Notes: generated by a model not told the origin, from the sequence alone. Positions 22,789 to 47,433 are shown, counted from the stretch's first letter. The stretch is 64,000 bases of DNA from an uncultured Candidatus Nemicrothrix sp. (GCA_964564495.1 CAZMAW010000002.1:75364-139363), one strand, 5' to 3'. A program made the numbers and translations.

Positions 22789-23664
22789 ATGGCAGAGGAA
22801 GCACCCTTACTTAATGATGAAGCGGACCATCCTCATGATGTGATGTGGGAAAATAATGGGCGCAGAATAGTTGCGATGGATTCAGCCCGTTATGTCGATG
22901 CTCGTAATCGTGATTGTGATGTTGTAGTGCCTTCGTCTTACCTCGGCGTTTTGCCAGCGCGTCTGATGGCACCGCATAAGCCTCGTGCGGTGATAGGGCA
23001 TGATGGGTGCATAGGGAAAGATGGTGCTGGTATAGCTGGGCTGTGGTATCTAGAAGCTCTTGGTATTCCTTCCGCAGCAGCAGACGGCATGAGCGCAGAG
23101 CTAGGTAATGGGATTGACCTGTATGAAACAGGAATAATTTCAAGAATAAATATTCTTGCTGAAAGAGCAGGAGTCTCAGAAGGGATGGCAGTCTCTGAGG
23201 CGGCAAAAATCCTCGCCCTTAATGATCCAGGAGATGTTACGGCAGGGACCAAGATACGTCGCGAATCTGTCGCTACATCAGATACTGGAAGAGAGATCAT
23301 TGTTACAGATTCAATTGTTTTCGCTTTGCCCGAAGACACAAACAATGTTCTTGTGACAGCAGGTCATACAGGTCGGTCCGGAGCGAAATTCCTTTTAGAA
23401 GTTTCCCCGCATGGATTTATCTGTTCCGATGGTGGAATGAGTAAGAACAAAGCTGGAATTGCTGGGCTAGAAATGACTGAAGCCCACGGTCTGGCTGGAG
23501 CCTGTTGCGATGCATGGAGTGCTCCTGTAGGAGATGCATTCAAAGCATACTACGAGGGTTCTATCAGCGCATGCAACAAACCAGCGCGGGACCGTGGGGT
23601 CGAAGTAGGAATGAGTATAAAAGATGCCGCCTTTGCACTTTTGCAAGAGGAAAAGAATGCCTAA
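22789..23664 (+). CDS. uncharacterised protein built from two homologous domains; paralogue of 38131..38976
   Basis: halves share DS...D-G...GIAGL...D...G...G.IS..N..A...GV..GM motifs. GGAG SD before ATG 22789 (alternative 22777). Confidence 0.8.
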   Translation: MAEEAPLLNDEADHPHDVMWENNGRRIVAMDSARYVDARNRDCDVVVPSSYLGVLPARLMAPHKPRAVIGHDGCIGKDGAGIAGLWYLEALGIPSAAADGMSAELGNGIDLYETGIISRINILAERAGVSEGMAVSEAAKILALNDPGDVTAGTKIRRESVATSDTGREIIVTDSIVFALPEDTNNVLVTAGHTGRSGAKFLLEVSPHGFICSDGGMSKNKAGIAGLEMTEAHGLAGACCDAWSAPVGDAFKAYYEGSISACNKPARDRGVEVGMSIKDAAFALLQEEKNA

Positions 23665-24052
23665 ACAATCCACATCGGAACTGACAGGTGAATTTTGGAA
23701 ACAGGCTCAAGCCCAAATACTTGTTCGTCCTGTCTGCAGGTCCTGTGGGGAAAATTTCTTCATTCCCCAAGTCATCTGTCCGAGTTGCCACTCGGATACT
23801 TGGAACTACCAAGAAAGTTCTGGAGCGGGTTCAATTTATAGCTATACAGTGATTCATCGTCCACCCGACCCCAGTTTCCCTAGCCCGCTTTTCGTCGCTG
23901 ACATTGAACTGGATGAAGGGTGGAGGATGTTCTCATGGATAGTTGACTCACCGGCCACTGAAATCGAAATTTCTGCAAGAGTTAAAGTGACCTTCATCGA
24001 TTTTAAAGGAAGAAGCCTTCCAGCTTTTGAAATTGTTCGGGATAAATCATGA
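23657..24052 (+). CDS. DUF35/ChsH2-type Zn-ribbon plus OB-fold protein
   Basis: CRSC...CPSC, SGAGSIYSYTVIH; overlaps both neighbours. Confidence 0.88.
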   Translation: MPKQSTSELTGEFWKQAQAQILVRPVCRSCGENFFIPQVICPSCHSDTWNYQESSGAGSIYSYTVIHRPPDPSFPSPLFVADIELDEGWRMFSWIVDSPATEIEISARVKVTFIDFKGRSLPAFEIVRDKS

Positions 24053-25584
24053 ATGTCGGGTTGTCTATCCATCGAAACGCAGTTCGGTCTCCAAAGTCAC
24101 CCGCAATTTTTGGTAGCGCTCAATTGACCTATGCGCAATTGGACAGAAGAAGTAATCAAATCGCTCATTATCTGAATACATTCCTAACTAAAGGTGACCG
24201 TATTGCACTATTTGTAGCGAATCGTCCTGAGGTAGTCGAAGTTATGGGTGGGATCGCAAAGGCTGGAGGTATCTACGTCGGTTTAAATTTTAGGCTTGGT
24301 TCCCTTGAACTACAGCAAATCTTTGAGAACTCAGAACCCTCATTAGTGATTACAGACGAAGAGCATTTAGGGCAAATTGAAATGTTGGCTAAAAAAATTA
24401 ACATTCCGATATTGAATCTAGATTCAAAAAAGTGGGAGGACGAAATAGCCGCGATGCCTGATCTTGTTCCAGATACCCTTCATGAGGTCCGCTATGACGA
24501 CGACTTTTGTATTGTCTATACAAGCGGGACGACCGGAAGGCCGAAAGGCGTCCTTTTTGATCATGGACGGGCTATTCAACACGCCACAGTTGCGTGCATG
24601 GAATACGAAATCGATTCAGAGGCTCGATACCTGATACAAATTCCTCACAATTCGAGCGTAAATATTACTATCGTCCCCTGTCTTACTGTAGGGGCAGCTT
24701 TGTCGTTTCGCGATAGTCGGAATTTCGATCCTGTAGGGTTTGCTCGAGAAGTTGAAGAGCAAGGGGTGACCCATAGCTTCCTCGTACCTACTCAGTTGAT
24801 GAGGATTCTTGATCGGCTACCGCATGAAGCTGATCAAAAATTTTCCGGATTAGTCACATTAGGGTACGGATCTTCCCCCATCTCGCCTGACCGCCTACGA
24901 GAGCTTGTAGATCGTTTCGGATGTATATTCAATCAACTTTATGGGATGGCAGAAATTGCTTCTATAGGGACAATTTTACGAAAGAATGATCACATGATTG
25001 GGCTAAATGATCGCCCCGAACTTCTCTCTTCATGCGGTCAACCTTCCCATGCTGTGCACGTTCGAGTAGTTGACAAGAGCGGAGAAGATGTTCCAATCGG
25101 AGATAGGGGAGAAGTAATTTTCGCGGGCCCTCATGTTATGAAGGGTTATTATCGAGACACTCAACGCACAGAAGAGGTATTAATTGACGGGTGGATGCAT
25201 TCTGGCGACATAGCCGAAGTAACAGAGGACGGGTTCATCTTTATTGTTGATAGGAAAAAGAACCTTATTATTCGAGGTGGCTTGAACATCGCGCCGACAG
25301 AGATAGAGAATGTCCTGTACAGGCACGAAGATGTTCTTGATGCAACAGTGATAGGCGTCCCTGATCCTGAATGGGGCGAAGCGGTTGTAGCTGTTGTAGC
25401 TCTCACTCATGAGGCTAATGCGACAGCAGAAGACCTTAGGGTCCATTGTCGCAACTCGGAATTAACCTCAATCAAAATACCTGAACGAATTGAAATTTGG
25501 GAGGCACTACCGAAAAACGCAGTAGGGAAGATATCAAAGAATGAAATCCGGGAAAGTTTTTGGGGATCTGGAAGGCAAGTCTAA
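24049..25584 (+). CDS. acyl-CoA synthetase (AMP-forming)
   Basis: YTSGTTGRPKG, YGMAE, HSGD, DRKKNLIIRGG. Confidence 0.93.
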   Translation: MNVGLSIHRNAVRSPKSPAIFGSAQLTYAQLDRRSNQIAHYLNTFLTKGDRIALFVANRPEVVEVMGGIAKAGGIYVGLNFRLGSLELQQIFENSEPSLVITDEEHLGQIEMLAKKINIPILNLDSKKWEDEIAAMPDLVPDTLHEVRYDDDFCIVYTSGTTGRPKGVLFDHGRAIQHATVACMEYEIDSEARYLIQIPHNSSVNITIVPCLTVGAALSFRDSRNFDPVGFAREVEEQGVTHSFLVPTQLMRILDRLPHEADQKFSGLVTLGYGSSPISPDRLRELVDRFGCIFNQLYGMAEIASIGTILRKNDHMIGLNDRPELLSSCGQPSHAVHVRVVDKSGEDVPIGDRGEVIFAGPHVMKGYYRDTQRTEEVLIDGWMHSGDIAEVTEDGFIFIVDRKKNLIIRGGLNIAPTEIENVLYRHEDVLDATVIGVPDPEWGEAVVAVVALTHEANATAEDLRVHCRNSELTSIKIPERIEIWEALPKNAVGKISKNEIRESFWGSGRQV

Positions 25585-26738
25585 TGGGTATCAAAGCCGC
25601 AATAGCTGGTGTCGGGCTAACTGAACAAGGTAAAACGCTAGACCGCACAAACATTTCCATATGCGTAGAAGCTCTGAGCTTGGCCTTGCAAGATGCAGGT
25701 ATGACAATAGATGATGTTGACGGAATTGCTGCCCGATGGCCTGGACCGGGAGGAACGTTATTTGATCCTGGGGTCGTTGACTGGTCTGGGACCCTTGGTA
25801 CCTCATTCCGTTGGGTATGTGATACTTATCCCCAAGGCGTTCCAGGCCTTCTGGACGCAGCTGCCGCTGTTTCAGCTGGCATATGCGAGGTTGCAGTCGT
25901 TTTTGGAGGTCAAGCGGGAGTCCTTCAAAAATCAGACCTTGCCGCCTATACGAGGCCAGAAAATGAATTTGTGGCCCCTTGGGGACTATTTACAGCAGCC
26001 CACTTTGCAATGATTGCACAGGTTTACTTCAACCGTTATAACCCTGACCGTTATCGGCTTTCTGAGGTGGCAGCGACAATACGTAATGCAGGGAATGTGA
26101 ATCCTAGGGCAGTAATGTATGATCGAGGCCCATATGAACCTGGTGATGTTACCGATTCTCCCCTTATATGTGAACCATTTCATCTTCTCGATCTTTGCTT
26201 AGCCACTGAAGGTGCATCTGCAGTCGTAGTGACATCTATCGAGAGAGCGAGAGACTGCCCACATACTCCAATTAAGATTTTGAGTGGAAGCTCTGAATGG
26301 CATAGGCAACAATATGTCAATCCCCCTCGTTATGACGAAGTAGGCCACATAGGTAAAGACGCCTTTTCTCGAACGTTCGGTGGAGCGGGGTTGGCACCTG
26401 GCGATATCGATGTATATGAGCTTTACGACATAAACACTTGGGAAGTAGTTCGACAGTTCGAAACGATGGGCTTATGTGATGAAGGAGAAGGAGTAGACTT
26501 TCTGCACGAGAATGGGATCGCTTGGAATCAGAAATATCCAACCAATACTGATGGGGGACTTCTTTCTTTCAGTCATACCGGTTGGGGGGGTCCGACATTA
26601 AAGATCGTCGAAGCAACTAGTCAACTCCGAGGCATAGCTAAATCAGGACAAGTCGAAGGTGCGGAGACAGCTTTAGTCACTGGAGCGGGTTCAGGAGCGC
26701 AGTACTTTAACGCAGCAATTTTATCAATTGACCGGTAG
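25584..26738 (+). CDS. SCP2/Ltp2-type thiolase-fold protein lacking the nucleophilic Cys
   Basis: AAIAGVG, ELYD, NTDGGLLSFSH; YPQG where the thiolase C-A-S-G motif is expected; TAATG coupling to the ligase. Confidence 0.85.
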   Translation: MGIKAAIAGVGLTEQGKTLDRTNISICVEALSLALQDAGMTIDDVDGIAARWPGPGGTLFDPGVVDWSGTLGTSFRWVCDTYPQGVPGLLDAAAAVSAGICEVAVVFGGQAGVLQKSDLAAYTRPENEFVAPWGLFTAAHFAMIAQVYFNRYNPDRYRLSEVAATIRNAGNVNPRAVMYDRGPYEPGDVTDSPLICEPFHLLDLCLATEGASAVVVTSIERARDCPHTPIKILSGSSEWHRQQYVNPPRYDEVGHIGKDAFSRTFGGAGLAPGDIDVYELYDINTWEVVRQFETMGLCDEGEGVDFLHENGIAWNQKYPTNTDGGLLSFSHTGWGGPTLKIVEATSQLRGIAKSGQVEGAETALVTGAGSGAQYFNAAILSIDR

Positions 26739-26773
26739 TTAGTTCGCACCATAATTTCGAAACTACTAATCTG

Positions 26774-28039
26774 ATGACGAGGATAGGAGAAGTCATGGAA
26801 ACTATAAGGGACATGGAACCACCCCCCCACATTGTCGGAATTCAACATTTTGTTGACTACGAATCGGTAGACGAAATTCTTAAATCTAAAGACTTCCGCC
26901 AAGGTTCACACCAGGAAAGTCAACCTTTCTTTGGAGACTCTCTCCTAACCATTGACCATGGTGATCATTTCGATCGGAGGAGGCTTGAGGCTCCACTCTT
27001 TCGGAAGGAAGCTTTGGAATATTATGAACGTGAAGAATTGCTCCCGTTGATAGCGAGATCTCTTGAAGAATGTGAACAGAATCGCGGGCAGGATGGTTTA
27101 GTAAGGGCAGATCTCTGTCTCCTAGTACGGAATATGTTGGCCCGAATCTCCGCAGTTACGACAGGCATAGACGGTGTTGACACACCTGAGCGCACCGATG
27201 CTTTCAGGATGTATGTTGAGCAATTAGGGACAGGTGCGACTGTGGAATGGTCAACGGAAGACCATGATGAGGTGATCGATCGAATTCTTGCTATCCGAGA
27301 GGGGTTTGTTAATGAATTCTATGGCCCTTCTGTAGAGCGCCGGCGTAAACTGATCTCGAAGTTTCAAGCAGGTGACATATCAGAGGAGGACCTCCCCCAT
27401 GATTTGTTAACTCTTATGTACCTTCACTGGAATGACGACTGGGATGACGAGCTGCCCTTACGGGAAGCGACCTTATACACAGTTGCCTCGAGTCAGACGA
27501 CAACTCATGCGGTCCCACACATGATGATGCATCTTCATGAATGGTTTGAAGCACATCCTGAAGATTATGAAAAAAGATTCGATCGAGAGTTCCTAAAACG
27601 CGCTGGACATGAAGCAATTCGGCTTCATCTGCCCTCCCCAGCTTTACTGAGAATAGCCCTTAAGGACGTCACTTTGAGTAGCGGGATTGAGATAGCTGAA
27701 GGGGAACGTGTCGCATGTTTATTCACTCCGGCGAATCGTGACATTTCCGTCTTCGGAGATGATGCAAAGTCTTTTGACCCCTATCGTGAAGTTGCCGATG
27801 TGAAACCTTGGGGATTCGCTTTTGGAGGGGGAGAACATACATGCATTGGTCGTACATTGGTAACAGGACTTTCCGCAAGAACTGACGGTGATGAAGGAAC
27901 AGATGGTACTTTGGTCAATATTGCCCTCGCACTTTTCGAAGCTGGATTAGAACTCGATCCAGAAGACTGGCCGGCATTTACCGAGCTCAGTTATCACGAT
28001 GCTTATGGTAGCTTCCCAGTAATTTTAAGAAGTCTTTAG
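26774..28039 (+). CDS. divergent cytochrome P450 (I-helix ASSQTT), same family as 9183/10432
   Basis: HFDRRRLEAPLFR, HEAIR, FGGGEHTCIG; alternative start 26795. Confidence 0.88.
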   Translation: MTRIGEVMETIRDMEPPPHIVGIQHFVDYESVDEILKSKDFRQGSHQESQPFFGDSLLTIDHGDHFDRRRLEAPLFRKEALEYYEREELLPLIARSLEECEQNRGQDGLVRADLCLLVRNMLARISAVTTGIDGVDTPERTDAFRMYVEQLGTGATVEWSTEDHDEVIDRILAIREGFVNEFYGPSVERRRKLISKFQAGDISEEDLPHDLLTLMYLHWNDDWDDELPLREATLYTVASSQTTTHAVPHMMMHLHEWFEAHPEDYEKRFDREFLKRAGHEAIRLHLPSPALLRIALKDVTLSSGIEIAEGERVACLFTPANRDISVFGDDAKSFDPYREVADVKPWGFAFGGGEHTCIGRTLVTGLSARTDGDEGTDGTLVNIALALFEAGLELDPEDWPAFTELSYHDAYGSFPVILRSL

Positions 28040-28046
28040 GGGGAAG

Positions 28047-28247
28047 ATGCCTGACTCCGAGTTTCACGTCAAAATCGACACATTAATTTGTGAGGGTACA
28101 GGTTATTGTGTGCGCGTAGTGCCAGAAATATTTGGCATTGGAGGCGATGGCTTGGGTGAAGTTCTTGTCGACAGGCCAGACTCGAATTATACAGAAGCCC
28201 TCGAAGAGGCAGCGACGCTATGCCCAACCAGGGCGATCACATATTGA
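28047..28247 (+). CDS. single-cluster ferredoxin, likely [3Fe-4S], partner of the upstream P450
   Basis: CEGTGYC...CP (CxxTxxC...CP); 7 nt after the P450. Confidence 0.9.
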   Translation: MPDSEFHVKIDTLICEGTGYCVRVVPEIFGIGGDGLGEVLVDRPDSNYTEALEEAATLCPTRAITY

Positions 28248-28261
28248 ACGACTTGCGCTAG

Positions 28262-28759
28262 TTAAACGCTTTTTGAATCAGCAGCACTATATTCTTGTAG
28301 AAGTTTTTCTGCGTTAATGGTACTTCCATCCCCAGCACCGATTTGGACAGGAGGCCAGTGACCGTCCTTAAAGATTACTAGCACGGTGACCCCTTCTTCT
28401 CCTGCAATTAATGGCCCATACCCTCGGTTCGCTAGCCCGATTCTTATGTCGCCTTCATGGAGCCATTTACCACTGACCTTCTGGCTTCCTTGAAGAATGA
28501 TTTCTGAATAGTCACATGCATGTGTATGGGCCTCTACTCGACAATTGGGTGGAAAGTAGGCCTTGAAAACTGTAGGAGATGAATCATCGGTTGGTAACCC
28601 GATTCGGTATTGAGTGGTTTCAACACCTGTTTCCTCTATCCAGACTTGACCAAGTTGTTCCCAAGAAGTGACAACGTGACCACGGCGGTTGAGTTCTTCA
28701 GCGATAACTTCCGGGGTATCTTGTGCCTTTCGGTCTTTAGTAACAGGTGAAGATTCCAT
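28262..28759 (-). CDS. cupin-fold protein; paralogue of 19607..20083
   Basis: HTHACDYSE and RIGLANRGYGPL identical to the paralogue. Confidence 0.75.
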   Translation of the reverse strand: MESSPVTKDRKAQDTPEVIAEELNRRGHVVTSWEQLGQVWIEETGVETTQYRIGLPTDDSSPTVFKAYFPPNCRVEAHTHACDYSEIILQGSQKVSGKWLHEGDIRIGLANRGYGPLIAGEEGVTVLVIFKDGHWPPVQIGAGDGSTINAEKLLQEYSAADSKSV

Positions 28760-28780
28760 TCGTCTCCTTAATTTTCTTGA

Positions 28781-29509
28781 TTATGCTTGCTCGTAGATCA
28801 TCCAAAGGTCATGGAAAAGCCGGCTTGTTTCGATAGTGCAATCGAACACTGCTTTTCTTGCATCTCCCGTTAGTGCATAGTCTGAAACCATTTCTATGCC
28901 TTCATCGCCGTGATCTTGGTCAGCAATGATATGCATTGTCCAGAAAATGACTTGTTCATCGGTCATGTCATAGTTTTCTTTAAACGCAGCCACCATTCTT
29001 GTAAAGGTTTCAGGGACGAAAGATTCCAATCCGATTCCGATAGCAGAGAGCGGGACAAACCACTCGCGGCATAAGCCCATGAATTCAAAATAATCCGTGA
29101 CCCTTCTGCCAGCTGGCCTTTGCTCAGCTAGTCGAATAGCGTCAGTATCGGATCCAACCGCGTCGGCAAATTGGAGAAGCAATTCAGGGTGCGCGTCTGT
29201 TTGTGTCTCGTATCCAGTGCATTCTTCAGCAAGATTTTTGACTAATGAAGTTCGCACGTCCTCGTGGGGGCATCGCACATAGATCGCTCCAATCCATGGA
29301 AGCATTCGTGAAATATGGAGATAAAACTGTTCAGTGAATAATTGCAGTTGAGGAAGTGTGATCGTACCGGCTTCAAGACCATTGACAAGCGGGTGGTTAT
29401 ACATACCTCGACCAGGTTTCATGCACTCTTCACGAATTGCACCGACAAATTCAGCTGGAGACATTTCAGCGAGTTCGTTTTTGTCAATATGGGTTTCAAT
29501 CAAAGCCAT
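28781..29509 (-). CDS. heme-oxygenase-like diiron oxidase (CADD/PqqC/TenA superfamily)
   Basis: E96 (NLAEE), H107, E162, H193-x3-D197-x2-H200 match the CADD diiron ligand set. Confidence 0.82.
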   Translation of the reverse strand: MALIETHIDKNELAEMSPAEFVGAIREECMKPGRGMYNHPLVNGLEAGTITLPQLQLFTEQFYLHISRMLPWIGAIYVRCPHEDVRTSLVKNLAEECTGYETQTDAHPELLLQFADAVGSDTDAIRLAEQRPAGRRVTDYFEFMGLCREWFVPLSAIGIGLESFVPETFTRMVAAFKENYDMTDEQVIFWTMHIIADQDHGDEGIEMVSDYALTGDARKAVFDCTIETSRLFHDLWMIYEQA

Positions 29510-29634
29510 AGAGGTCCTCCTAGGGTTTCACACATTGTAACTTGGTTTGTTCTTTCTGTCATTATCGAACTCCACTTCCTATGTACTCTAATTGCTACTA
29601 AAATCAGATTCTCTTGGAATATTTTGGAGGATAA

Positions 29635-30780
29635 TTGTCTTTACCGATTGAAATAAGCGCAGATCATGAAGAAATAGTTAAAGAGTGTCGTCTCCTTGCG
29701 AAACAAGTGGAGCCTTTCGCGATGGAAGCTGATGAATCAAGCGTAATGCATGAACCTACGCTTGCAGCTCTTAGATCAAGTGGGCTTTCTGACCTTATGG
29801 TCCCATCTGCATATGGTGGGCGGTTTGATGAAGTCGACCCCCTTGCGGTCTGCCTTGCCCGTGAAGTATTCATGAAAACTTCGTCACATTTAGATTCAGT
29901 TTTCGCTTTACAAGGAATTGGAAGTTATGCAATTTCTCGGGCAGGAACTGATTCGCAAAAAGAGGAATGGTTACCAGCTGTAGCTAAAGGTGACGCGTTG
30001 GCAGCTCTTGCTTTGACAGAGCCTATAGCGGGATCTGATCTTAAAGGCATAGAGACAACCGCAACTGCAGTAGACAATGGACTTATTCTAAATGGAGCCA
30101 AATCATTTATTTCCAATGCGGGATCAGCTTCTTTCTATACGACGCTTGCGAAAGAAGATGACGGCTACTCACTTTTCCTTGTCCCTGCAGACAGTGAAGG
30201 ACTGACGGTGTCGCCATCCCCCGAGATAATAGCGCCACACGTTTTGGGTGAACTAACCTTTGACGAAGTATTTCTTCCGGAATCCTCTCGTTTGGGAGAA
30301 AAAGGCGCTGCATTTCGACATGTACTGGCGACATTGTCCGTTTTTAGAATTTCAGTAGCTGGAGCAGCTGTAGGATTAATGGAAGGAGCATTAGAAGAAG
30401 CAGTTCGTCATTGCCGTACGCGCGAACAATTCGGAAGGCCCTTAGTAAAACATGGTCCAGTTGCTACCTTACTGGCCGATTCATGGTCCGACCTAGAATC
30501 AGCTCGGCTACTTACATACCAAACTGCTGCAATGGCAGCCGCCGATCCAGAAGGAAATCTAGACCGATCGTCGTTAGCAAAACTAACAGCCACTGAAGCT
30601 GCAACTCGGGTCGTCGATAGATGCGTCCAAACCATGGGCCGTTGGGGTTTGATACGGGGATCAAAGATTGAGAAGTATTATCGTCAAGCCCGCCCTATGC
30701 GCATATACGAAGGCGCCTCTGAGATACTCCGTTTAGGGATTGCCTCTCGCCTCGTAAAGGAGATCTCAGATGAATCTTGA
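29635..30780 (+). CDS. acyl-CoA dehydrogenase
   Basis: ALTEPIAGSD, NGAKSFISN, REQFGRPL, IYEGASE. Confidence 0.93.
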   Translation: MSLPIEISADHEEIVKECRLLAKQVEPFAMEADESSVMHEPTLAALRSSGLSDLMVPSAYGGRFDEVDPLAVCLAREVFMKTSSHLDSVFALQGIGSYAISRAGTDSQKEEWLPAVAKGDALAALALTEPIAGSDLKGIETTATAVDNGLILNGAKSFISNAGSASFYTTLAKEDDGYSLFLVPADSEGLTVSPSPEIIAPHVLGELTFDEVFLPESSRLGEKGAAFRHVLATLSVFRISVAGAAVGLMEGALEEAVRHCRTREQFGRPLVKHGPVATLLADSWSDLESARLLTYQTAAMAAADPEGNLDRSSLAKLTATEAATRVVDRCVQTMGRWGLIRGSKIEKYYRQARPMRIYEGASEILRLGIASRLVKEISDES

Positions 30781-31522
30781 TCTCAAAGACCGGATTGCTA
30801 TCGTTACAGGAGCTAGTAGAGGGCTAGGTGAAGCGATCGTCAAAGACCTAGTAGACGAGGGGGCTCTGGTTGTAGCTGCTGCTCGATCAGAGGAAGCTCT
30901 TAATGAACTGTCATTATATTCTCCTGACCGGATAGCAGTAAAAGTCGCAGATATGCAGAAATCAGACGACGTTGAGGCGATTGTCGATTTTGCAATCCAC
31001 CGATTCGGTTCTCTAGATGCTGTTGTGAACAATGCAGGGATTGCGCCAGCTGGAAAATTTATTGATACCGAAATAGGAGTTATGGAGAAGACATTTACTG
31101 TAAATGTCTTAGCTCCGGCCATTCTGGCAAGAAAAGCGGCCCAGTACTTTATAGAAAATAATCTAGGAGGTTCGATAGTAAATATTGCGTCAACTTCCGG
31201 CATTAAGGGGAAAGCATTGCTTGTTGGTTACTCAGCATCCAAAGGCGCAATGATGCGAATGACTGAAGCATTGGCTGCTGAGTGGGCTCGGTTCGGAATT
31301 AGGGTCAACACTATTGCACCCGGGGCATTTGAAACTGAAGCCCAAGCAGCTGTATTGGAGGATGAAAATATTCTTGCGGCAAGACTACGAAAGATACCGC
31401 TACGGCGGATGGGGGACCCTTCGGAGATTGGAGCCTTAGTATCATATTTAGTTTCTACGAAATCAAGTTTTGTAACAGGTTCCTGCTTCGTTATTGACGG
31501 TGGCGAAGTAAACAAACAATAA
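30770..31522 (+). CDS. SDR
   Basis: TGASRGLG, NNAG, YSASK. Confidence 0.92.
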   Translation: MNLDLKDRIAIVTGASRGLGEAIVKDLVDEGALVVAAARSEEALNELSLYSPDRIAVKVADMQKSDDVEAIVDFAIHRFGSLDAVVNNAGIAPAGKFIDTEIGVMEKTFTVNVLAPAILARKAAQYFIENNLGGSIVNIASTSGIKGKALLVGYSASKGAMMRMTEALAAEWARFGIRVNTIAPGAFETEAQAAVLEDENILAARLRKIPLRRMGDPSEIGALVSYLVSTKSSFVTGSCFVIDGGEVNKQ

Positions 31523-31539
31523 TTTAGAAAAGGAGAAAT

Positions 31540-32262
31540 ATGTCTAATAATGCAGACCACGACGTCCTTGGTAGCGCTGCTCTTGCATCGCGGGAAGTTG
31601 CAGCAAAGTCGCACAAATTCGCAGAGGGGTACGCACGTGTCCGTGAAGTGACGGACCTTGACGGGGCTTGCCCCGCTTGGGCAAAAGCTCTTTTTATGTC
31701 CTGTGCGGCTGCAGTAAGAGGCCATGAAGAGCTTATGCTAAGGGAGCTGGGCCGTTCGAAAGATCTAGGGCTATCGCTAAATGATGCCCGCGGGGCAGCC
31801 TTAACTGTTTTTATAAGTAGAGGTGAAGGTGTATATAGCAAGTTTACATCTGCAATTAACGAATTTTATGGTGAGGAAATCGGACAGCCTGATGAAGACT
31901 CTCCAGCATTTCAATTGGATAAAGACGCTTGCTTGGAATACTTTGAAGGTTATTTTGGCTTCATACCAACCTACGTTCAGCTCATGGCCGAGGAAGCTCC
32001 TAGAGCCCTTGAGGGGTATGTGCTTATGAGAGAGTTCTCTTTAGCGGAGAATTTACTTGATGCTAAAAATGTCGAATTGCTTCTCTGCACAGTTAATGCA
32101 GCTGAATTTTCATCCAGATTCACAAATGTGCATGCGAACGGGGCTAGAAATGCTGGAGCTACAGAAGCTGAAATCGTTGAAGCGGTAATTTGTGCCTTGC
32201 CTGTTTCCGGAGTTGCGTCTTGGCTGCCCGGTGCGGACGGAATTATGGAAGGTCGCAGCTAG
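31540..32262 (+). CDS. two-domain carboxymuconolactone decarboxylase/AhpD-like protein
   Basis: two CMD-like helical units (KALF...H...GLS; LDAKNVELL...H...GATEAEIVE); no CxxC. Confidence 0.7.
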   Translation: MSNNADHDVLGSAALASREVAAKSHKFAEGYARVREVTDLDGACPAWAKALFMSCAAAVRGHEELMLRELGRSKDLGLSLNDARGAALTVFISRGEGVYSKFTSAINEFYGEEIGQPDEDSPAFQLDKDACLEYFEGYFGFIPTYVQLMAEEAPRALEGYVLMREFSLAENLLDAKNVELLLCTVNAAEFSSRFTNVHANGARNAGATEAEIVEAVICALPVSGVASWLPGADGIMEGRS

Positions 32263-32279
32263 AAACTTGCTTTGGATAT

Positions 32280-32636
32280 TTAAAAATCTGAAGAGTTCAA
32301 CTTGACTGACTGGTGAGTTATCTCTCCGTTCTGGATCGTTAATGTATCTGTTCCAGAGGCTTTAATGTTTTCTCCGACTATCCGCCAAAAAAATGTCGCT
32401 TGCGTGCCATCGATTAATAACTTGTCAAAATGTATCTGAGCATTGCCGAGTCGGTTGGGGACCGTTTGGAAGTAAGCTTGGATCTCTTTAATCCCTGTAT
32501 ATATGTCGCCACCACGTTCCAAGATGGCATCTTTTGAATAATCAGCTGCCATTTGCGTGGTGTCTCCACTTAGAACTGCTGTAATATGGTTTTGAGCGAC
32601 CTGCTCGGGGGTTCGGTTGGGCTTTTGAGAAGTCAT
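32280..32636 (-). CDS. SnoaL/NTF2-like protein
   Basis: 118 aa; YSKDA, YTGIKEI, DTLTIQNGEI. Confidence 0.75.
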   Translation of the reverse strand: MTSQKPNRTPEQVAQNHITAVLSGDTTQMAADYSKDAILERGGDIYTGIKEIQAYFQTVPNRLGNAQIHFDKLLIDGTQATFFWRIVGENIKASGTDTLTIQNGEITHQSVKLNSSDF

Positions 32637-32684
32637 TAGTCTAGCTTGCCGTTAGATTAACTAACTTGCAAGAAAAGGATTTCC

Positions 32685-34316
32685 ATGGACAAAGTTTCTG
32701 ATCTTTATACTTTCCCTGACCTTCTAGTTCGGGCTGTAAATCGAGCGGGGGATGACGACGCTATTCTTTTCCCGGATCAAACGTTTACATATTCAGAAAT
32801 ATACGATCGGGCAGTAGCTTCAGCTCGCTCGCTCATGACGTTGGGGATTCGTACGGGAGATCATGTAGGTATTCTTATGTCAAATTGCCAAGAGTTTGTT
32901 GACATATTTTTTGGGGCCCAACTTATAGGGGCGTGGCCCGTTCCAATAAACGCCCGATATAAAGCTAGGGAATTGAACTATGTCATTCGAAATGCAGATC
33001 TAAAAACGCTTTTCACTACAGATCGTATTGTCGAACATGTTGATTTTGTAGCGTTACTAACAGACGCATTCCCAAGTCTTAGAGAGCAGAAAGATCCTTC
33101 GTCGCTTCAAATAGACGACGCACCGCTACTGCAAAATATTATTCTTTTCGGTGGGCGATCCCCGGAAGGAATGATGGACCAAGAAACATTTCAAAGCATG
33201 GCTCCCGGTACCACAGAAGAAGAAATTGAACTTTGTCGTTCCCGAATCGCAATTCGTGATGTGGCCATGATGATGTATACCTCGGGGACTACAGCGATGC
33301 CGAAAGGATGCCCAATATCCCATGAAGCTCTTGTAAGGCCAGCTATTGAAGCGGGTAGAAGTAGATTTTTTCTTGAAAAGGATGACAGAATGTGGGACCC
33401 ACTGCCCATGTTTCATATGAGCTTTGTTCTTCCTTTGATTGCATGCATGGATGCCGGGGCAGCTCTGCTGAGTATGGAATATTTCGAACCCGAATCAGCA
33501 ATTGAGTACATGGAAAGAGAGGGAGCAACGGTAAATTTCGCAAGCTTCCCTACAATAACCGAAGCAATATTGAATCATCCGAATTATGACTCAAGCAAGC
33601 TTCTTATCCGGATAGTTAATAATGTCGGACCGGCAAAGATGCTTCTTTCAATGCAGGAAAGGATGCCGGAGGCCACTCAGATTAGTGCCTACGGAATGAC
33701 AGAATGTGGTGGTGTTTCATGTTTCGGCGACATAAATGACAGCTTAGAAAAACGGACTGAAACTAGTGGAAAGCCATTTCGTGGTATCGAAATGCAAATT
33801 AGGGATATAGAAACCGATGAAGTTCTTGGGCCTGATGAAGTCGGAGAAATATTAGTTCGGGGATATTGCGTATTCGAAGGCTATTACAAGGATCCAGAAA
33901 AAAATACTGAAGCGTTTACCACCGACGGCTGGTTTCGAACAGGTGATATTTGTTCAATAGATGAAGATGGGAGAGTCACATATCGTTCACGTTTAAAGGA
34001 CATGCTTAAAGTCGGAGGAGAAAATGTTGCGGCAGCAGAAATCGAGGGTCTGCTTTCCGGACATCCTTCAGTTGTTCTGGCTCAAGTAGTTTCAGCTCCT
34101 GACGACAAATACATGGAAGTTCCGGCGGCCTATATCCAGATTCTGGATGGTTCAAGTGTTTCTGAAGAAGAGATTATTGAATTCTGTAAGGGGAAGATTG
34201 CGAACTTCAAGATACCTAAGCATGTTCGTTTTGTTTCGGAGTGGCCAATGTCGGCTACGAAAATTCAAAAGGTTCGTTTGCGGGAAATGATTTCCGAAGA
34301 GCTTGCAGGTTCTTAA
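32685..34316 (+). CDS. acyl-CoA synthetase; close paralogue of 20989 and 44220
   Basis: YTSGTTAMPKG, YGMTE, FRTGD, RLKDMLKVGGEN. Confidence 0.93.
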   Translation: MDKVSDLYTFPDLLVRAVNRAGDDDAILFPDQTFTYSEIYDRAVASARSLMTLGIRTGDHVGILMSNCQEFVDIFFGAQLIGAWPVPINARYKARELNYVIRNADLKTLFTTDRIVEHVDFVALLTDAFPSLREQKDPSSLQIDDAPLLQNIILFGGRSPEGMMDQETFQSMAPGTTEEEIELCRSRIAIRDVAMMMYTSGTTAMPKGCPISHEALVRPAIEAGRSRFFLEKDDRMWDPLPMFHMSFVLPLIACMDAGAALLSMEYFEPESAIEYMEREGATVNFASFPTITEAILNHPNYDSSKLLIRIVNNVGPAKMLLSMQERMPEATQISAYGMTECGGVSCFGDINDSLEKRTETSGKPFRGIEMQIRDIETDEVLGPDEVGEILVRGYCVFEGYYKDPEKNTEAFTTDGWFRTGDICSIDEDGRVTYRSRLKDMLKVGGENVAAAEIEGLLSGHPSVVLAQVVSAPDDKYMEVPAAYIQILDGSSVSEEEIIEFCKGKIANFKIPKHVRFVSEWPMSATKIQKVRLREMISEELAGS

Positions 34317-34333
34317 AATTTGCTTCTTGCTTT

Positions 34334-35872
34334 TCAGGTGCTTCGCTGGCGGAGCTCCCTTTTAAGTATTTTCCCAGTCTGAGCTTTAGGAAGTTCGTTA
34401 ACGAATTCAACAGTTCGAGGTTTTTGGTAGCTCGCTAGGTTGTCCTTGGCCGTTTCGATGATCTCTGCTTCGTTGGCATTTCGGCCTGGTTTGAGTACAA
34501 CGAAAGCTTTGACTGATTCTCCCCACTCATCATCCGGAATCCCAATAACTGCTACTTCCAATACAGCAGGATTTTTCGCTATTGCTTCCTCAACCTGAAC
34601 GGAGTAGATATTTTCTCCTCCGGAAATTATCATATCTTTCGCACGATCAACGATAAAGCAGTAGCCATCGTCATCCCAAGTTGCTATATCGCCAGTCCAC
34701 ATCCATCCATCTCTAATGGTTTCAGCTGTTAAATCTGGCCGCTCAAAATATCCGAGCATATTCGCGGGGGATTTAACGATAATCTGCCCAGGGGTTTTTC
34801 CATCTTGAGGAACATCAATTCCATGATCATCAACTATTCTTACCGTGGTTATAAACCCCTCGCGGCCACATGAACGAAGACGTTCAGTTCTATGCCCGTC
34901 TCGAATAGCCCGTATGTGGTCTTCCTGAGAAAGAAATGTCATGGTTGTTCCTTCAGTTTGACCATATCCCTGTAACAGCGTGCAAGGAAAGGCAGATAAA
35001 GCCTCAGCTATAACTCGACTCGGCATTGGGCCTCCACCGTATTGGATGTTCCGAAGCGAGCTCAGGTCATAGTTATCAAAGTCCTCTACAGCCATCATCC
35101 AGTTGAGCATCGTTGTTACTCCGAGGAATGCGGATACCTTCTCTGTCGAAATAAGTTCTAGCGCGAGAGTTGGTTCAAAGTTCATTAATACGAGTGGGCA
35201 TCCGTGCGCCTGGTAGTTCATAGCGAGGACAACTGGAATATGGAACATCTGACCAGTCAGCATATAAACGTCAGAAGGGACAATACGCTCCGCGACAGTT
35301 TGATTTAGCATCCCGTACCAAACAGATTTATGGGAATGCAAGGCTCCCTTCGACTCTCCAGTCGTTCCACCAGTGTAAAGAATGAAAAAAGGGTCATTGC
35401 CTCCGATGTGATCGGAATTGATCGGCTCTACTTCGCTGCTGTTTTCTATGAGCTGTTCGAAGCTGCCATCTCCTAAGGAACCGAATTCAAACCAGTATTG
35501 GATAGAGGTATTCTGTTGTTTCAATAATGTCTTTTCGTCGTTCAAAGCATCTCCAGAGATCAAAACTTTTGGAGATCCATTTCCGATGACCCTAAGTAGT
35601 TCTGGAATTGATAACCGCCAGTTCATAGGTTGAGCAATAAGGCCTACTCGTCCACAGGCATAGAATGTCGCAAGATTTTCAATGGAGTTCTGACTTAGTA
35701 TCGCAACACGGTCGCCCTTCTCTAGACCAAGATCTAGAAGGCCATTTGCCAGCTTTCTAATAATGCGGTCGAAATCCGCATAATTTATTCTCTGTCCAGT
35801 TGAAGCGTCGATAACTGCTTCATTATCCGGTGTTAATTTCGCCCATTTTTTGGGAACCGAACCGATATTCAT
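34334..35872 (-). CDS. acyl-CoA synthetase (long-chain type)
   Basis: YTGGTTGESKG, YGQTE, WTGD, DRAKDMIISGGEN. Confidence 0.93.
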   Translation of the reverse strand: MNIGSVPKKWAKLTPDNEAVIDASTGQRINYADFDRIIRKLANGLLDLGLEKGDRVAILSQNSIENLATFYACGRVGLIAQPMNWRLSIPELLRVIGNGSPKVLISGDALNDEKTLLKQQNTSIQYWFEFGSLGDGSFEQLIENSSEVEPINSDHIGGNDPFFILYTGGTTGESKGALHSHKSVWYGMLNQTVAERIVPSDVYMLTGQMFHIPVVLAMNYQAHGCPLVLMNFEPTLALELISTEKVSAFLGVTTMLNWMMAVEDFDNYDLSSLRNIQYGGGPMPSRVIAEALSAFPCTLLQGYGQTEGTTMTFLSQEDHIRAIRDGHRTERLRSCGREGFITTVRIVDDHGIDVPQDGKTPGQIIVKSPANMLGYFERPDLTAETIRDGWMWTGDIATWDDDGYCFIVDRAKDMIISGGENIYSVQVEEAIAKNPAVLEVAVIGIPDDEWGESVKAFVVLKPGRNANEAEIIETAKDNLASYQKPRTVEFVNELPKAQTGKILKRELRQRST

Positions 35873-35951
35873 GTAATTGTCTTACTAGAACTATCAGGAG
35901 AAACCAAATTTGGAATCTTAGGACGTACTTTGGTTCTCTAATCGAAATCGA

Positions 35952-36785
35952 TTACATTCCCGACTTTCCGCCTTCGCGTAAGAAAGGTTCGGGTGTTGAA
36001 TACGGCGGATCGCCAGGTTTTGATCCCGTCGTTGCCCCGCCGTCGACGACAAGACAATGCCCATTAGTATTTCCAGACTCTTCTGATGCTAGATATAAAG
36101 CTGCGTTTGCAACATCTATTGCTTGCCCAGGCCTACCGAGGATGGGTGAGAGTTCAGCAAGTCGATCTTTCACTTCTGATAATGCCTCATGATCATCCAA
36201 GTGCGCTTTCGCGACAAGTGGGGTAGCAGTAGATCCTGGAGCAATGCAATTTACGCGGATTCCGTATCTACATAGTTCTGCAGCAACGTTTTTTGTCAAT
36301 CCCACAATGGCATGTTTGGCGGCAGCATAGGCGTGTGGCCCCAATCCTCCGTTCACTCCAGCTGTACTTGCCAAATTTATAATTGATCCGTCCCCGTGGC
36401 CTTTCATTGCTTGAGCAGCATATTTCATCCCAAGAAATGTACCAATAAGATGGATTTGGATCGTAGCCTCGAATTCCTCTCTCGGAATTTGAGTTATCGG
36501 CCCTCGTGCACCAACGACGCCAGCATTATTCATCATTATGTCGATATCCCCCCCATAGGTATCAATCGCGAAATCAATAAGTCCTGATACATCATCTTCG
36601 TTAGTGACATCACACTTGTAGAAAACTGCAGAGTCTCCAAGTTGATCTGCAACCTTATTTCCAAGGTCTAATTGAATGTCGCCTAGAACGACTTTCGCGC
36701 CTTCTTGAATGAACCTTTCAGCAGTACAGGCTCCTATCCCAGAAGCTCCGCCCGTAATGACAGCGACTTTTCCTTCTAATCTCAT
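35952..36785 (-). CDS. SDR; close paralogue of 20150
   Basis: TGGASGIG, NNAG, YAAAK; same C-terminal PF-RE-GK-G tail. Confidence 0.92.
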   Translation of the reverse strand: MRLEGKVAVITGGASGIGACTAERFIQEGAKVVLGDIQLDLGNKVADQLGDSAVFYKCDVTNEDDVSGLIDFAIDTYGGDIDIMMNNAGVVGARGPITQIPREEFEATIQIHLIGTFLGMKYAAQAMKGHGDGSIINLASTAGVNGGLGPHAYAAAKHAIVGLTKNVAAELCRYGIRVNCIAPGSTATPLVAKAHLDDHEALSEVKDRLAELSPILGRPGQAIDVANAALYLASEESGNTNGHCLVVDGGATTGSKPGDPPYSTPEPFLREGGKSGM

Positions 36786-36803
36786 ATGTAACCTTTCGTC
36801 TAT

Positions 36804-37982
36804 TCAACTAAGTTGACTTTGAATTTTTCCGGCTCTCTGCCATGCTGCAATAGCTGAAACCAGTATGGCTAATGTTGCTAACCAAGAATATAAGTATGTG
36901 TCCGTAATATCCACAAGAACACCGAAACCTGCCGGAGTAACAAGAGCCCCGAGGTAATAGCCTGTCATGGTTATTCCGGTAGCGCTACCAATACTCAGTG
37001 GAGCTATATCAATGACTGCAGCGTGCATCGTTCCAATAGCGGCCAGCTGCGTTGATATTCCAAGAGTCAACCCAATAATCACAATAAAGGTTCCAAGAGT
37101 AGTTCCAAGAATCACCATGATTACTGAAAGTGAACTCACACATAAGAGGATCATGATGAGCGGTATTCGCTTTAGTGCACCGAGTTTGTCCGCCCAAACA
37201 CCGTTACAGATCATCATGATCACACCTGTAAATGATGCAATGGCCATAATTCCGCCTGACAAACCTGCTGAAGCATCCAGGGATTCTTCAAGATATGAAA
37301 CTGTCCAAGAATAAAGAGGTTGAGATCCGCCGATTAACAGGAAAGCAGCTATACCAAACCAGTAGAACCCGCGGGGGAGAGGGTGAGTAGATATGCTGGT
37401 GGTAGCTTCCATTCGATCGTCATCTAGAATCACAAGAGCGGCAAGCCCCGCGATGGTCGCACTTATAGCGTTTATCACCAGTATTGTCTGCCAATTCCAA
37501 ACGTTTGCAGCCCATGGCCCTATAGCAGCAGCAACTGTTGCCATTAGCGGAACTCCCGATGTTTTCACAGACATCGCAAGCGCTCTTCGTTCGAGTGGAA
37601 CAGCATTACCGATAGCAACATTTGTGCCAGTGTTTGCCAACGCGTACCCCATGCCAGCTAAAACACTCATAATAATCCAAATAGCGTAGGTGCTTAAAAT
37701 AGCTATAAGTACTGAAGCACCTGCAACAAGCAGCATATTTGATACAACTACTTTTCGAGCACCAAATCTATCTGTTAGTCGCCCTGCTGGGATTGACCCT
37801 ATACCAGTGGCACCAAAGTAGACGCCTACGATTAGACCGATTTTTCCTCGGGATACATCTAAATCTTCGCTTAGGGTTGTCGCTAAAAACCCTGGAATGA
37901 ATCCGAGAGATGCCCCCATCCCTACACTTGCGCAACAAGAGAGAACTGTCGGCCAGGCGGAAATCTGCAGTTTAGATGACAA
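36804..37982 (-). CDS. MFS transporter
   Basis: GRLTDRFGARK motif A; about 12 hydrophobic segments. Confidence 0.9.
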   Translation of the reverse strand: MSSKLQISAWPTVLSCCASVGMGASLGFIPGFLATTLSEDLDVSRGKIGLIVGVYFGATGIGSIPAGRLTDRFGARKVVVSNMLLVAGASVLIAILSTYAIWIIMSVLAGMGYALANTGTNVAIGNAVPLERRALAMSVKTSGVPLMATVAAAIGPWAANVWNWQTILVINAISATIAGLAALVILDDDRMEATTSISTHPLPRGFYWFGIAAFLLIGGSQPLYSWTVSYLEESLDASAGLSGGIMAIASFTGVIMMICNGVWADKLGALKRIPLIMILLCVSSLSVIMVILGTTLGTFIVIIGLTLGISTQLAAIGTMHAAVIDIAPLSIGSATGITMTGYYLGALVTPAGFGVLVDITDTYLYSWLATLAILVSAIAAWQRAGKIQSQLS

Positions 37983-38130
37983 CGTAATACGAAATTATGT
38001 TCATGATTCCACCTGGAAAATCGGCTGGCTACTTTGCCTAAGAACTCAAATTGAATTTTTCCATTAAGCGGTATTAGTGTCAAATGGATCGAATCCGATA
38101 TTGCCACATGCAATCGGCGTTTCTCGCTGC

Positions 38131-38976
38131 TTAATTTAGTAAAAGCAAAGACGCTGCACCCGCAGCTGGCATTCCAATCGTTACTCCTTTAGTAGCTGCA
38201 TGGCTATTCACAGCAGAAATCACTCCATCGTGGTAATGGGATAACCCACTGCCCATTCTCGCATACCGTGCATCTATCGTCGCGCCAGGGAGGCCTTCTT
38301 CTTCAACAATATAAAGCCCTGCCATTCCTGAGTCGTCCATTCCCTTACCGCCATCTGAGCAGATGAATCCCCGTGGCCTACATCGGAGAAGGTATGGAAC
38401 GGCAGAACGACCGGTATGGCCAGCAGTAACAAGCACATTTCTCCCAGTGTCCTCGTCGGTGCCAAACGCAATGGAGTCCGTAGCAATAACGTACCTGCCA
38501 TCTGGTGAGGTTTCCATAATGGTCCGATTTGTTATCTCAGAGGCACTTGCCGCTTCCGGATCATTTTCCAAAAGCACGGGTGCAGCATCTTTAACACTCA
38601 TACCAACCGTTACTCCGCAATCAAGGGCTAGCTGATTCATGAAGCTAATTACACCATTCTCATATAGGTGCACCCCATTCCCCAAATGTGCGGTCATTAC
38701 ATCGGCGACAGCTGCGGGGATTGAAAGGGCTTCCAAATACCAGAGGCCAGCAATAGCTGAACCTTCTGGACCTATACCGCAATCCATCCCGATCGCTCCA
38801 CGTGGCGCGTGTTCTGCAATAAATCTGGCAGGTAGGACGCCACAATACGACGAGTTGACACACACATCTTTCCCTGTGTTGCGTTCGTCAACGTCGTATG
38901 CCGAGTCCATAGCCATAACTGACCCTCTACCTGACTTTGATTCAAAAACTTTCGTTTGCGTATCAATCGAAGACAT
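38131..38976 (-). CDS. uncharacterised two-domain repeat protein; paralogue of 22789
   Basis: MDSA, GVLPAR, AGLWYLEAL, NVLVTAGHTGRS and GFICSDGG shared with 22789. Confidence 0.8.
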   Translation of the reverse strand: MSSIDTQTKVFESKSGRGSVMAMDSAYDVDERNTGKDVCVNSSYCGVLPARFIAEHAPRGAIGMDCGIGPEGSAIAGLWYLEALSIPAAVADVMTAHLGNGVHLYENGVISFMNQLALDCGVTVGMSVKDAAPVLLENDPEAASASEITNRTIMETSPDGRYVIATDSIAFGTDEDTGRNVLVTAGHTGRSAVPYLLRCRPRGFICSDGGKGMDDSGMAGLYIVEEEGLPGATIDARYARMGSGLSHYHDGVISAVNSHAATKGVTIGMPAAGAASLLLLN

Positions 38977-40648: not shown

Positions 40649-41419
40649 CTAAATTGTGCCGCGAGGTGGAAATTGCGGCTTTCGTTTTTCCATAAATGCA
40701 TTTGCTCCTTCGAGCATGTCAGGTGAACCAATAGCTTGGATAAGCGCACCGAGACTGTTCACCATATTGTCTCTCATTTGGTGGTACATAACGTTTGAGC
40801 TAGCTTTCGCCACTTCCAAATACCTAGCGCTCATTTTAATTATCTCTTCGCACCAGATCTCGACTTCTGCATGTAATTGATCGTCCGGAACTACTTTGTT
40901 GATCCATCCGAGTTCGAAAGCCTCCTGTGCTGAGTATTTACGACACAAGAAAGAAACCTCTTTGGCACGTTTTTCTCCAATGGTCATTGCCAAAAGATTC
41001 GTGCCTCCTAAAACAGGAGCACTGCCTACCTTGACGCCTGTTTGTCCGAGTTGTGCGCTTTCCGCTGCGATTGCCAAATCACACATTACGACGAGCTCGT
41101 TCCCACCTCCAAATGCACCACCGTTCACTGCGGCAATGATAGGGAAAGGGGCACCGCGGAGAGCATCAAATAACTCTAGACTTCCGGTAAACATTGCACG
41201 CACATTCCAAAAATCGGCTTCGGCGAGGTTGCCTAAATATCCGCCCGCGCAGAATGCTCGCCCCTCTCCCGTTATTACGCCAACCCGTGCATCCATATTT
41301 TCTCGAAGGGCTTGGATGATTTCGTCAACTGTCTGACGGCCATAGGAATTAAGTCGTTCAGGCCGGTTCAGCGTTATCCAAAGAACGTCACCTCGTCTAT
41401 CCACTAAAATATCTTCCAT
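40649..41419 (-). CDS. crotonase-fold enzyme, MenB/BadI-like (possible beta-ketoacyl-CoA ring hydrolase)
   Basis: AFCAGG, GGGNEL, GQTGVKVGS, AFMEKRKP; GGAGG SD before ATG 41419. Confidence 0.8.
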   Translation of the reverse strand: MEDILVDRRGDVLWITLNRPERLNSYGRQTVDEIIQALRENMDARVGVITGEGRAFCAGGYLGNLAEADFWNVRAMFTGSLELFDALRGAPFPIIAAVNGGAFGGGNELVVMCDLAIAAESAQLGQTGVKVGSAPVLGGTNLLAMTIGEKRAKEVSFLCRKYSAQEAFELGWINKVVPDDQLHAEVEIWCEEIIKMSARYLEVAKASSNVMYHQMRDNMVNSLGALIQAIGSPDMLEGANAFMEKRKPQFPPRGTI

Positions 41420-41617
41420 TGATACCTCCAAGAATAATTGATCCGAGTCAGAGATAATGTAGTTCAGATACTTCAATTTTGTAAAACATGGCTCTGTTAT
41501 AAGAATTGACTGATTGTGGTGACCCTTTAAAATGAGGATGGACTTTGGAAATTTCGAGATCTTAAAATACCTAAGGAAACAGAAAATGAAAAATGTAATT
41601 GCAGAAGGTGGACGAAT

Positions 41618-45851: not shown

Positions 45852-45857
45852 ATTAAG

Positions 45858-46577: not shown

Positions 46578-46603
46578 ATAGTAGATGTTAGGAGATAATT
46601 ACT

Positions 46604-47365: not shown

Positions 47366-47433
47366 TCTCATAGACCATCTATTAAACGCCATCAGTATCG
47401 GTAAAAATGGTTCATGACTAGCAAAGGAATCAG

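Follow-up and report, generated by a model that had tools for sequence, protein, structure and literature searches.

The described family closest to the proteins considered here is DUF1805, a single small domain of about 100 amino acids (aa) represented by YunC of Bacillus subtilis and by Ta1206 of Thermoplasma (PDB 1qw2). Since DUF1805 is of unknown function, likeness to it gives no mechanism. The proteins are encoded in a stretch of 64,000 nucleotides (nt) from an uncultured Candidatus Nemicrothrix sp. (GCA_964564495.1 CAZMAW010000002.1:75364-139363), which at its full length is called the window throughout. Its G+C content is about 46% and its closest protein matches come from marine Acidimicrobiia metagenome-assembled genomes. 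The two genes in question, named DUPa (copy 1) and DUPb (copy 2), are as follows:

22789..23664, + strand: DUPa, 291 aa from the Met at 22789; the open reading frame (ORF) opens at 22777 (295 aa)
22834..23232, + strand: N-half of DUPa, residues 20-152, with D35-S36, S54-Y55 (22936..22941), D76 and N125
23254..23652, + strand: C-half of DUPa, residues 160-292, with D178-S179, the invariant VLVTAGHTG containing H197 (23365..23367), D218 and N267
38131..38976, - strand: DUPb, 281 aa, with the two-half architecture of DUPa

Residue numbers for DUPa are those of the 295-aa ORF opening at 22777. No characterised family explains the two proteins, and we consider them promising candidates for a new enzyme, or for a subunit of one, and a good target for enzyme discovery. 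The reading that we favour, tentatively, is that they are enzymes or obligate partner subunits acting on carbonyl intermediates.

The first-pass annotation of this DNA had described the two genes as paralogues whose products each consist of two homologous halves of about 130 aa, and both statements hold. DUPa and DUPb are 52% identical over 265 aa (E 1e-84), and the C-half of DUPa is 35% identical to the N-half of DUPb (E 1e-16). When 62 N-halves were aligned with 60 C-halves by hhalign, the probability was 100% and the E value 7.9e-49 over 127 columns; the halves are therefore homologous at the profile level and the internal duplication is real. For DUPa, the Met at residue 5 (22789) is a better start than 22777, having GGAG 7 nt upstream and orthologues that open with MAE. 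The motif residues of DUPb are S43-Y44 in the N-half and A185-G186-H187 in the C-half (His codon 38416..38418).

The pattern of conserved residues is the first line of evidence for an active site. In 25 diverse members of the window clade, D35-S36, S54-Y55-x-G57, V191-LVTAGHTG-G199 and D76/D218 were invariant or nearly so, as were G88-L89, G119..S122..N125..A128..G136-M137 and their C-half counterparts, so that the motifs listed in the first-pass annotation can be retained. Across the whole family the conservation of single residues was 97% for S54, 99% for N125, 95% for both D218 and N267, and 91% for both H197 and D76. The motifs found family-wide in both halves are D-S, G-S-H-G-G, N-D-A-G-x-G-K-D-x-A-G-I-x-G-L, S-A-R-I-G-D-G-x-D and G-v-I-S-x-x-N..A...G...G-M. 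GSHGG is the ancestral motif of both halves, with the SSY of the N-half and the AGH of the C-half derived within the window clade, where Tyr has taken the place of the ancestral His in the N-half and Gly that of the ancestral Ser in the C-half. The contrast between SSYxG and TAGHTG that had been drawn earlier is thus true of the window clade, but it is a derived state.

The Ser and His residues of this motif were tallied in 106 sequences, comprising 104 full-length representatives and the two window copies. Both residues were present in both halves (SH,SH) in 74 of them, and nearly all of the degenerate forms combined S[YF] in the N-half with [SGAT]H in the C-half. In other words, the N-half keeps its Ser while its His is changed to Tyr or Phe, and the C-half keeps its His while its Ser is lost, mainly in the same proteins. 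Among the 106 sequences there was never one half without both Ser and His while the other half retained both. Independent sites would predict the loss of both residues from one half, and since complementary retention was seen we infer a single asymmetric site; the sequences suggest that this site uses Ser54 of the N-half together with His197 of the C-half.

AlphaFold2 gave a half-domain model with a pLDDT of 96.6 and a pTM of 0.91, and a full-length model of DUPa with a pLDDT of 85 and a pTM of 0.63. By DSSP the order of elements in the half-domain is beta-beta-beta-alpha-beta-alpha-beta-alpha-beta-alpha-alpha. The half-domain is therefore predicted to be a beta-hairpin joined to a Rossmann-like beta-alpha-beta unit, and the protein a pseudo-dimer that combines two homologous alpha/beta domains, each about 130 aa long. 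In the model the conserved residues all lie in loops after C-terminal strand ends, which is where Rossmann-like folds bind ligands. Conserved polar residues in loops at strand ends would be expected for a ligand or active site, and the earlier suggestion of an enzyme, made from these residues, gains from the model. With the half-domain as query, the best Foldseek match in the PDB was 1qw2 (Ta1206), over 58 columns with a root-mean-square deviation (rmsd) of 1.5 A, a probability of 0.92, a weak E value of 0.21 and TM-scores of 0.37/0.47; with the full-length model, nothing was found below E 0.45 and 1qw2 was not among the 50 matches listed.

Sequence databases lead to the same distant relative. 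Each copy has about 2000 homologues, nearly all unnamed or 'hypothetical', and a profile search of 1.84 billion representatives returned 1103 clusters (50% identity) at E<=0.001, most of the full-length matches listed being 255-330 aa long. The label 'YunC (DUF1805 family)' is given to some homologues by the JGI, and distant members are named only in this way or as 'hypothetical'. Neither copy has a meaningful match in NCBIfam, where no curated cutoff was reached, and DUF1805 and IMS are the only Pfam models that match, both at the G-v-I-S..N..A...GV..GM element that ends each half. The DUF1805 (PF08827) scores are 21.8 bits for DUPa and 18.3 bits for DUPb against a gathering threshold of 29.5, over model positions 36-60 only. 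P0262, a distant family member, scores 35.2 bits, above gathering, over positions 2-63 of 64, and 17 of 41 half-domains match at E<0.1. It is the last 60 or so residues of each half that match the model, in the shared order helix, strand, loop, helix, strand GvIS..N, helix, GV..GM, helix. The window proteins differ from DUF1805 in being a tandem of halves of about 130 aa instead of a single small domain, and in the extra N-terminal 65 or so residues of each half, which carry D-S, G-S-H-G-G and N-D-A-G-x-G-K-D and fall outside the 64-position Pfam model. Each half is best described as an extended, distant DUF1805-like domain, and the whole protein as a tandem of these. Searches of PDB sequences with a single protein, a full-length profile and a half-domain profile found no relative besides a short Y-family polymerase motif. 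The first-pass annotation could assign no family, and the Pfam, NCBIfam, PDB sequence and Foldseek searches, which give no characterised match, bear this out. Literature searches on DUF1805, YunC/HcgF and Poriferisocius yielded nothing useful. A possible link from DUF1805 to HcgF (FeGP-cofactor synthesis) was considered and dropped; no HcgF structure was among the 50 Foldseek matches listed.

The second line of evidence is the company that the family keeps. A census of canonical members covered 59 of 80 fetched metagenome loci, found by a scan with a 10-sequence alignment. An acetolactate-synthase-like thiamine diphosphate (ThDP) enzyme lies directly downstream of the canonical member in 27 of 47 loci, and the junction between the two genes is a 4-nt overlap in 13 of 25 cases and is within 12 nt in 23 of 25. 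Genes for E1 alpha/beta are also common near canonical members. None of the ThDP partner enzymes reached an NCBIfam cutoff, and no ligase was found among the labelled neighbours of canonical members in the census. Of the distant members sampled, two immediately precede the gene for an acetolactate-synthase-like ThDP enzyme, one comes after those for E1 alpha/beta ThDP subunits (one locus), one lies between a beta-keto-acid cleavage enzyme (BKACE) and Dak1/Dak2 (one locus), and one (P0254) is divergent from an unknown-thiolase-ligase operon. The gene heading that last operon (5380..6759, - strand, of locus L085) encodes a 459-aa protein with no Pfam or NCBIfam match. Furthermore, two independent fusions of the Rosetta-stone kind, in two branches distant from each other, join the family to carboxymuconolactone-decarboxylase-family (CMD) domains: P0244 (541 aa) is a DUPa-like protein with a domain 61% identical to the CMD protein of the window (31540..32262), and P0276 (393 aa) is a distant family member with a single CMD domain. 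A 106-aa gene that follows the ThDP enzyme in locus L081 is not CMD-like. The recurring partners are ThDP lyases/carboligases, thiolase/DUF35, BKACE, CMD proteins, amidohydrolase-type decarboxylases and short-chain dehydrogenases/reductases (SDRs). Their common trait is a carbonyl substrate, on which they work either at the C-C bond being formed or cleaved or at a position adjacent to it.

In the window itself the two copies lie in a dense catabolic island, with these genes around them:

20989..22653, - strand: acyl-CoA ligase, transcribed divergently from DUPa
23657..24052, + strand: DUF35 / ChsH2-type zinc-ribbon and OB-fold protein; its ORF opens at 23624, inside DUPa
24049..25584, + strand: acyl-CoA ligase, within the DUPa operon
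25560..26738, + strand: SCP-x / lipid-transfer-type thiolase, the usual partner of DUF35
26774..28039, + strand: cytochrome P450, last gene of the DUPa operon
29635..32262, + strand: acyl-CoA dehydrogenase (ACAD), SDR and CMD-family protein, between the copies; the CMD gene is 31540..32262
38976..40637, - strand: AMP-forming acyl-CoA ligase, directly before DUPb
40649..41476, - strand: enoyl-CoA hydratase, heading the hydratase-ligase-DUPb operon

Both copies are translationally coupled to neighbour genes. The likely start of the DUF35 gene is 23657, an in-frame ATG with GAGGA upstream and an 8-nt ATGCCTAA overlap with the stop of DUPa. As the first-pass annotation had it, DUPa is divergent from a ligase and heads a DUF35-ligase-thiolase-P450 operon. 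DUPb had been called coupled to a CaiC-like ligase, and the coupling stands: the ligase stop and the DUPb start have 1 nt in common (TAATG), and GAAGAGG precedes that start. The ligase scores best with PRK06155 'ATP-dependent acyl-CoA ligase' and lower with CaiC, both below cutoff. No NCBIfam equivalog cutoff was reached by any of the three ligases scanned (20989, 24049 and 38976). DUPb is followed by a major facilitator superfamily (MFS) transporter and then an SDR, and the genes between the copies also include a SnoaL protein, two further ligases and a haem-oxygenase-like protein.

To place these operons, 80 genome loci of GTDB species were annotated by BLAST against the window proteins. In the 68 loci whose downstream sequence is long enough, DUF35, ligase or thiolase comes after DUPa in 30-34 (DUF35 in 30 of 68). 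Orthologues of the window CMD gene lie no more than 6 kb from DUPa in 45 of the 80 loci and those of ACAD in 43, the range over the ACAD, SDR and CMD genes being 43-45 of 80. The order DUPa-DUF35-ligase-thiolase recurs in Acidimicrobiia, Pseudonocardia (including P. thermophila DSM 43832), Patulibacter, the gammaproteobacterial Elongatibacter/Wenzhouxiangellaceae and the alphaproteobacterial Hyphococcus. In Patulibacter, loci L078 and L073 taken together run hydratase, ligase, an unannotated stretch of about 0.8 kb, DUPb, DUPa, DUF35, ligase and thiolase, an array which joins both window segments into one operon. The hydratase, ligase, DUPb order is repeated in a TARA contig. In the sponge symbiont 'Ca. 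Poriferisocius', hydratase-DUPb is divergent from ACAD, SDR, CMD, Amidohydro_2, SDR, DUPa and Amidohydro_1; this locus has no ligase and DUPb directly follows the hydratase. In this clade DUPa and DUPb are both part of a single conserved regulon for CoA-dependent catabolism. It has roughly 12 genes, to which an Amidohydro_2 gene is added in related genomes, and its content is enoyl-CoA hydratase, two ligases, DUF35/SCP-x thiolase, acyl-CoA dehydrogenase, SDRs, CMD protein and P450. Since DUPa and DUPb share this conserved context they are functionally linked, and they probably work jointly, either in successive steps or within one hetero-oligomer. In the window clade a ligase is frequently, but not obligatorily, adjacent. 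The earlier link to CoA ligases and a CoA-dependent pathway is therefore upheld as to the place in the regulon, kept across at least five bacterial lineages; as to the ligases it holds for the window clade only, the bulk of the family being coupled to ThDP enzymes.

The gammaproteobacterial loci start with DUPb and a hydantoinase-A-like gene, after which come DUPa, DUF35, ligase, thiolase and P450. The additional gene, which is hydantoinase-A/caprolactamase-alpha-like (679 aa, below cutoff; 3830..5869 in L071 and 3858..5891 in L068, from Elongatibacter and Wenzhouxiangellaceae), lacks a hydantoinase-B partner in its operon, and one may ask whether DUP proteins stand in for the missing subunit in these genomes. 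The idea of a ketone-carboxylase or lactamase function, taken from this gene, was set aside and kept as a minor rival, the gene being present in only three gammaproteobacterial loci and not in the window.

Other features of the island are recorded here as side observations. Six AMP-forming acyl-CoA ligases lie within 25 kb (20989, 24049, 32685, 34334, 38976 and 44220) together with at least seven SDRs, which makes the segment 20989..45851 unusually ligase-rich. Genes like those of steroid or alicyclic degradation occupy 42763..54609, with a KstD-like FAD enzyme (42763), Amidohydro_2 (47434) and a KshA-like Rieske oxygenase (53449), and the segment 48554..53408 holds ACAD, SDR, CoA-transferase III, MaoC hydratase and thiolase genes. 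The KstD-like, KshA-like, MaoC, thiolase, CoA-transferase III and Amidohydro_2 genes lend the island the look of one for steroid or alicyclic degradation. Another two paralogues, without Pfam or NCBIfam match, are found at 19607..20083 (- strand, 158 aa) and 28262..28759 (- strand, 165 aa); the two are 54% identical (E 3e-62) and have the motif HTHACDYSEI.L.G in common. The paralogue at 28262 adjoins a haem-oxygenase-like (PF14518) gene, and that pair is kept beside the P450 in many related loci.

If DUPa and DUPb are indeed enzymes or obligate partner subunits, they would act on an intermediate with a carbonyl group, for example a beta-keto or an alpha-hydroxy-keto compound, and the reaction could be an isomerisation or epimerisation, a decarboxylation or a hydrolysis. 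It would take place at a composite asymmetric site made of Ser54 from the N-half and His197 from the C-half, for which a Ser/His hydrolase or a two-base racemase would be a mechanistic analogy only. Their partner would be the C-C-cleaving enzyme encoded next to them (DUF35/thiolase here, the ThDP enzyme in most of the family), with which they would form a complex or whose reaction they would directly precede or follow. A more specific proposal, which is possible yet doubtful, would make them a new type of subunit, either catalytic or an obligate partner, for C-C lyases directed at carbonyls (acetolactate-synthase-like and E1-type ThDP enzymes in most lineages, DUF35/SCP-x thiolase here). Each would be a pseudo-dimer whose composite Ser/His site belongs to a fold without a solved representative, and would perform an as yet unassigned step, for example isomerisation, decarboxylation or hydrolysis of a beta-keto or alpha-hydroxy-keto intermediate. 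The pathway would be a catabolic one, widespread yet undescribed, in Actinomycetota from the sea and from sponges. Several points weigh against an enzymatic role. The partners are diverse (ThDP enzymes, thiolase/DUF35, ligase, BKACE, Dak and hydantoinase-A-like), which would fit a generic binding or scaffold role equally. The model is less certain about how the two domains are arranged (pTM 0.63 for the whole protein, 0.91 for one half), and with it about any proximity of Ser54 and His197. A few members in the Ser/His tally lack Ser or His altogether, one sampled distant member has no metabolic context, and the census of neighbours was based on crude ORF calling in high-GC contigs.

The diversity of partners leads to the strongest rival, that the proteins are non-catalytic accessory subunits, such as a small-molecule-binding regulator, a chaperone or a scaffold, which assemble with the neighbour-encoded enzyme; their Gly-rich loops would then be the binding site of an effector or cofactor (CoA, a nucleotide or a diphosphate, for example), and the proteins would be comparable to the small subunit of acetolactate synthase or to DUF35 for thiolases. 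We regard this as a possibility to be taken seriously, if rather an unlikely one. Tight translational coupling to chemically different enzymes speaks for it, as do the presence at helix N-termini of two Gly-rich loops, a feature typical of phosphate-binding proteins, the replaceability of Ser or His in about 30% of representatives, and the relationship of the canonical partner to acetolactate synthase, whose family is known to have regulatory subunits of their own. However, the many polar residues that are highly conserved in both halves are more typical of catalysis, the fusions are to CMD domains and not to the supposed client enzymes, and there is no similarity to ACT-type regulatory subunits. 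It is improbable that the proteins serve instead in phosphoryl or acyl transfer, with the conserved His (or Ser) as covalent carrier between an ATP-using enzyme and the next step. Candidate ATP users would be the AMP-forming ligase, the hydantoinase-A-like ATPase and the Dak kinase, and the motif strand-G-S-H-G-G-helix resembles phospho-His loops; the hydantoinase-A-like gene does lie between DUPb and DUPa in three gammaproteobacterial loci, Dak1/Dak2 are neighbours in one locus and ligases are neighbours in the window clade. The ThDP enzymes, which are the commonest partners, use no ATP, however; moreover, the hydantoinase-A-like gene is limited to one lineage and absent from the window, Foldseek found no phosphotransfer domain, and the N-half His is lost in the window clade.

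The two remaining rivals concern the fold. The first-pass annotation had proposed a swivelling beta/beta/alpha (phosphohistidine-type) domain, which as an enzyme dedicated to the products of the adjacent CoA ligases would account for the alternating beta/alpha pattern, the invariant His of TAGHTG and the ligases next to both copies in the window. This is very improbable. The half-domain model is instead a predicted beta-hairpin with a Rossmann-like unit, with Ta1206 as its sole structural neighbour, and neither model has a Foldseek match at E<0.2 or a swivelling-domain structure among the 50 matches listed. Likewise, no swivelling domain, PEP-utiliser or other, matched in Pfam at E<=1, and ligase adjacency is missing in the sponge-symbiont orthologues, the sampled canonical members and the census loci. 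Finally, the Pfam labels precomputed for most homologues would make the proteins relatives of Y-family DNA polymerases (impB/mucB/samB), since DUPa scores 28.1 bits with IMS (PF00817), above the cutoff of 23.2, and DUPb 20.3 bits. The match, however, covers 26-30 of 148 positions (31-56 of the model), a single strand-helix element (GvIS.aN..Ar..GV..GM) which occurs once per half. This short element of 26-30 residues is nearly superposable on the Y-family palm motif (rmsd 0.4-0.7 A, identity 33-41%), and Foldseek superposed only 27 residues. The rest of the palm/fingers domain of about 148 positions, including its catalytic acidic residues, is absent from the window proteins, and the context is purely catabolic. 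Membership of the Y-family is thus refuted by coverage, a relationship of any kind can practically be dismissed, and the IMS label is a local-motif artefact that carries a systematic risk of mis-annotation.

These proteins represent a large family, with about 1100 clusters at 50% identity from marine, sponge-associated and soil bacteria of several phyla, that has no function, family model or structure. The enzymes to which its members are translationally coupled are of well-known classes, and their reactions are regarded as needing no further component. If the members prove to be enzymes or obligate subunits, it would mean that pathway reconstructions for ThDP-enzyme and thiolase operons miss a step, and there would be a handle for testing the regulon of about 12 genes, which marine Acidimicrobiia and sponge symbionts carry in abundance. 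For the present, automated pipelines call these proteins Y-family polymerase (IMS) domain proteins, which is an annotation trap.

Among known systems, the arrangement seen in canonical members, whose gene is translationally coupled to that of an acetolactate-synthase-like ThDP enzyme, is comparable to that of the accessory genes of catabolic acetolactate-synthase-type ThDP enzymes, namely the gene for the regulatory small subunit IlvN/IlvH and the acetolactate decarboxylase gene of the alsSD operon. There is neither sequence nor fold similarity to ACT-domain small subunits or to acetolactate decarboxylase. The canonical family gene stands upstream of the ThDP enzyme, and the window clade has no adjacent ThDP enzyme; the likeness is by analogy only. 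On that analogy, coupling to a ThDP enzyme would be the arrangement typical of a stoichiometric partner or of the next enzyme in the pathway.

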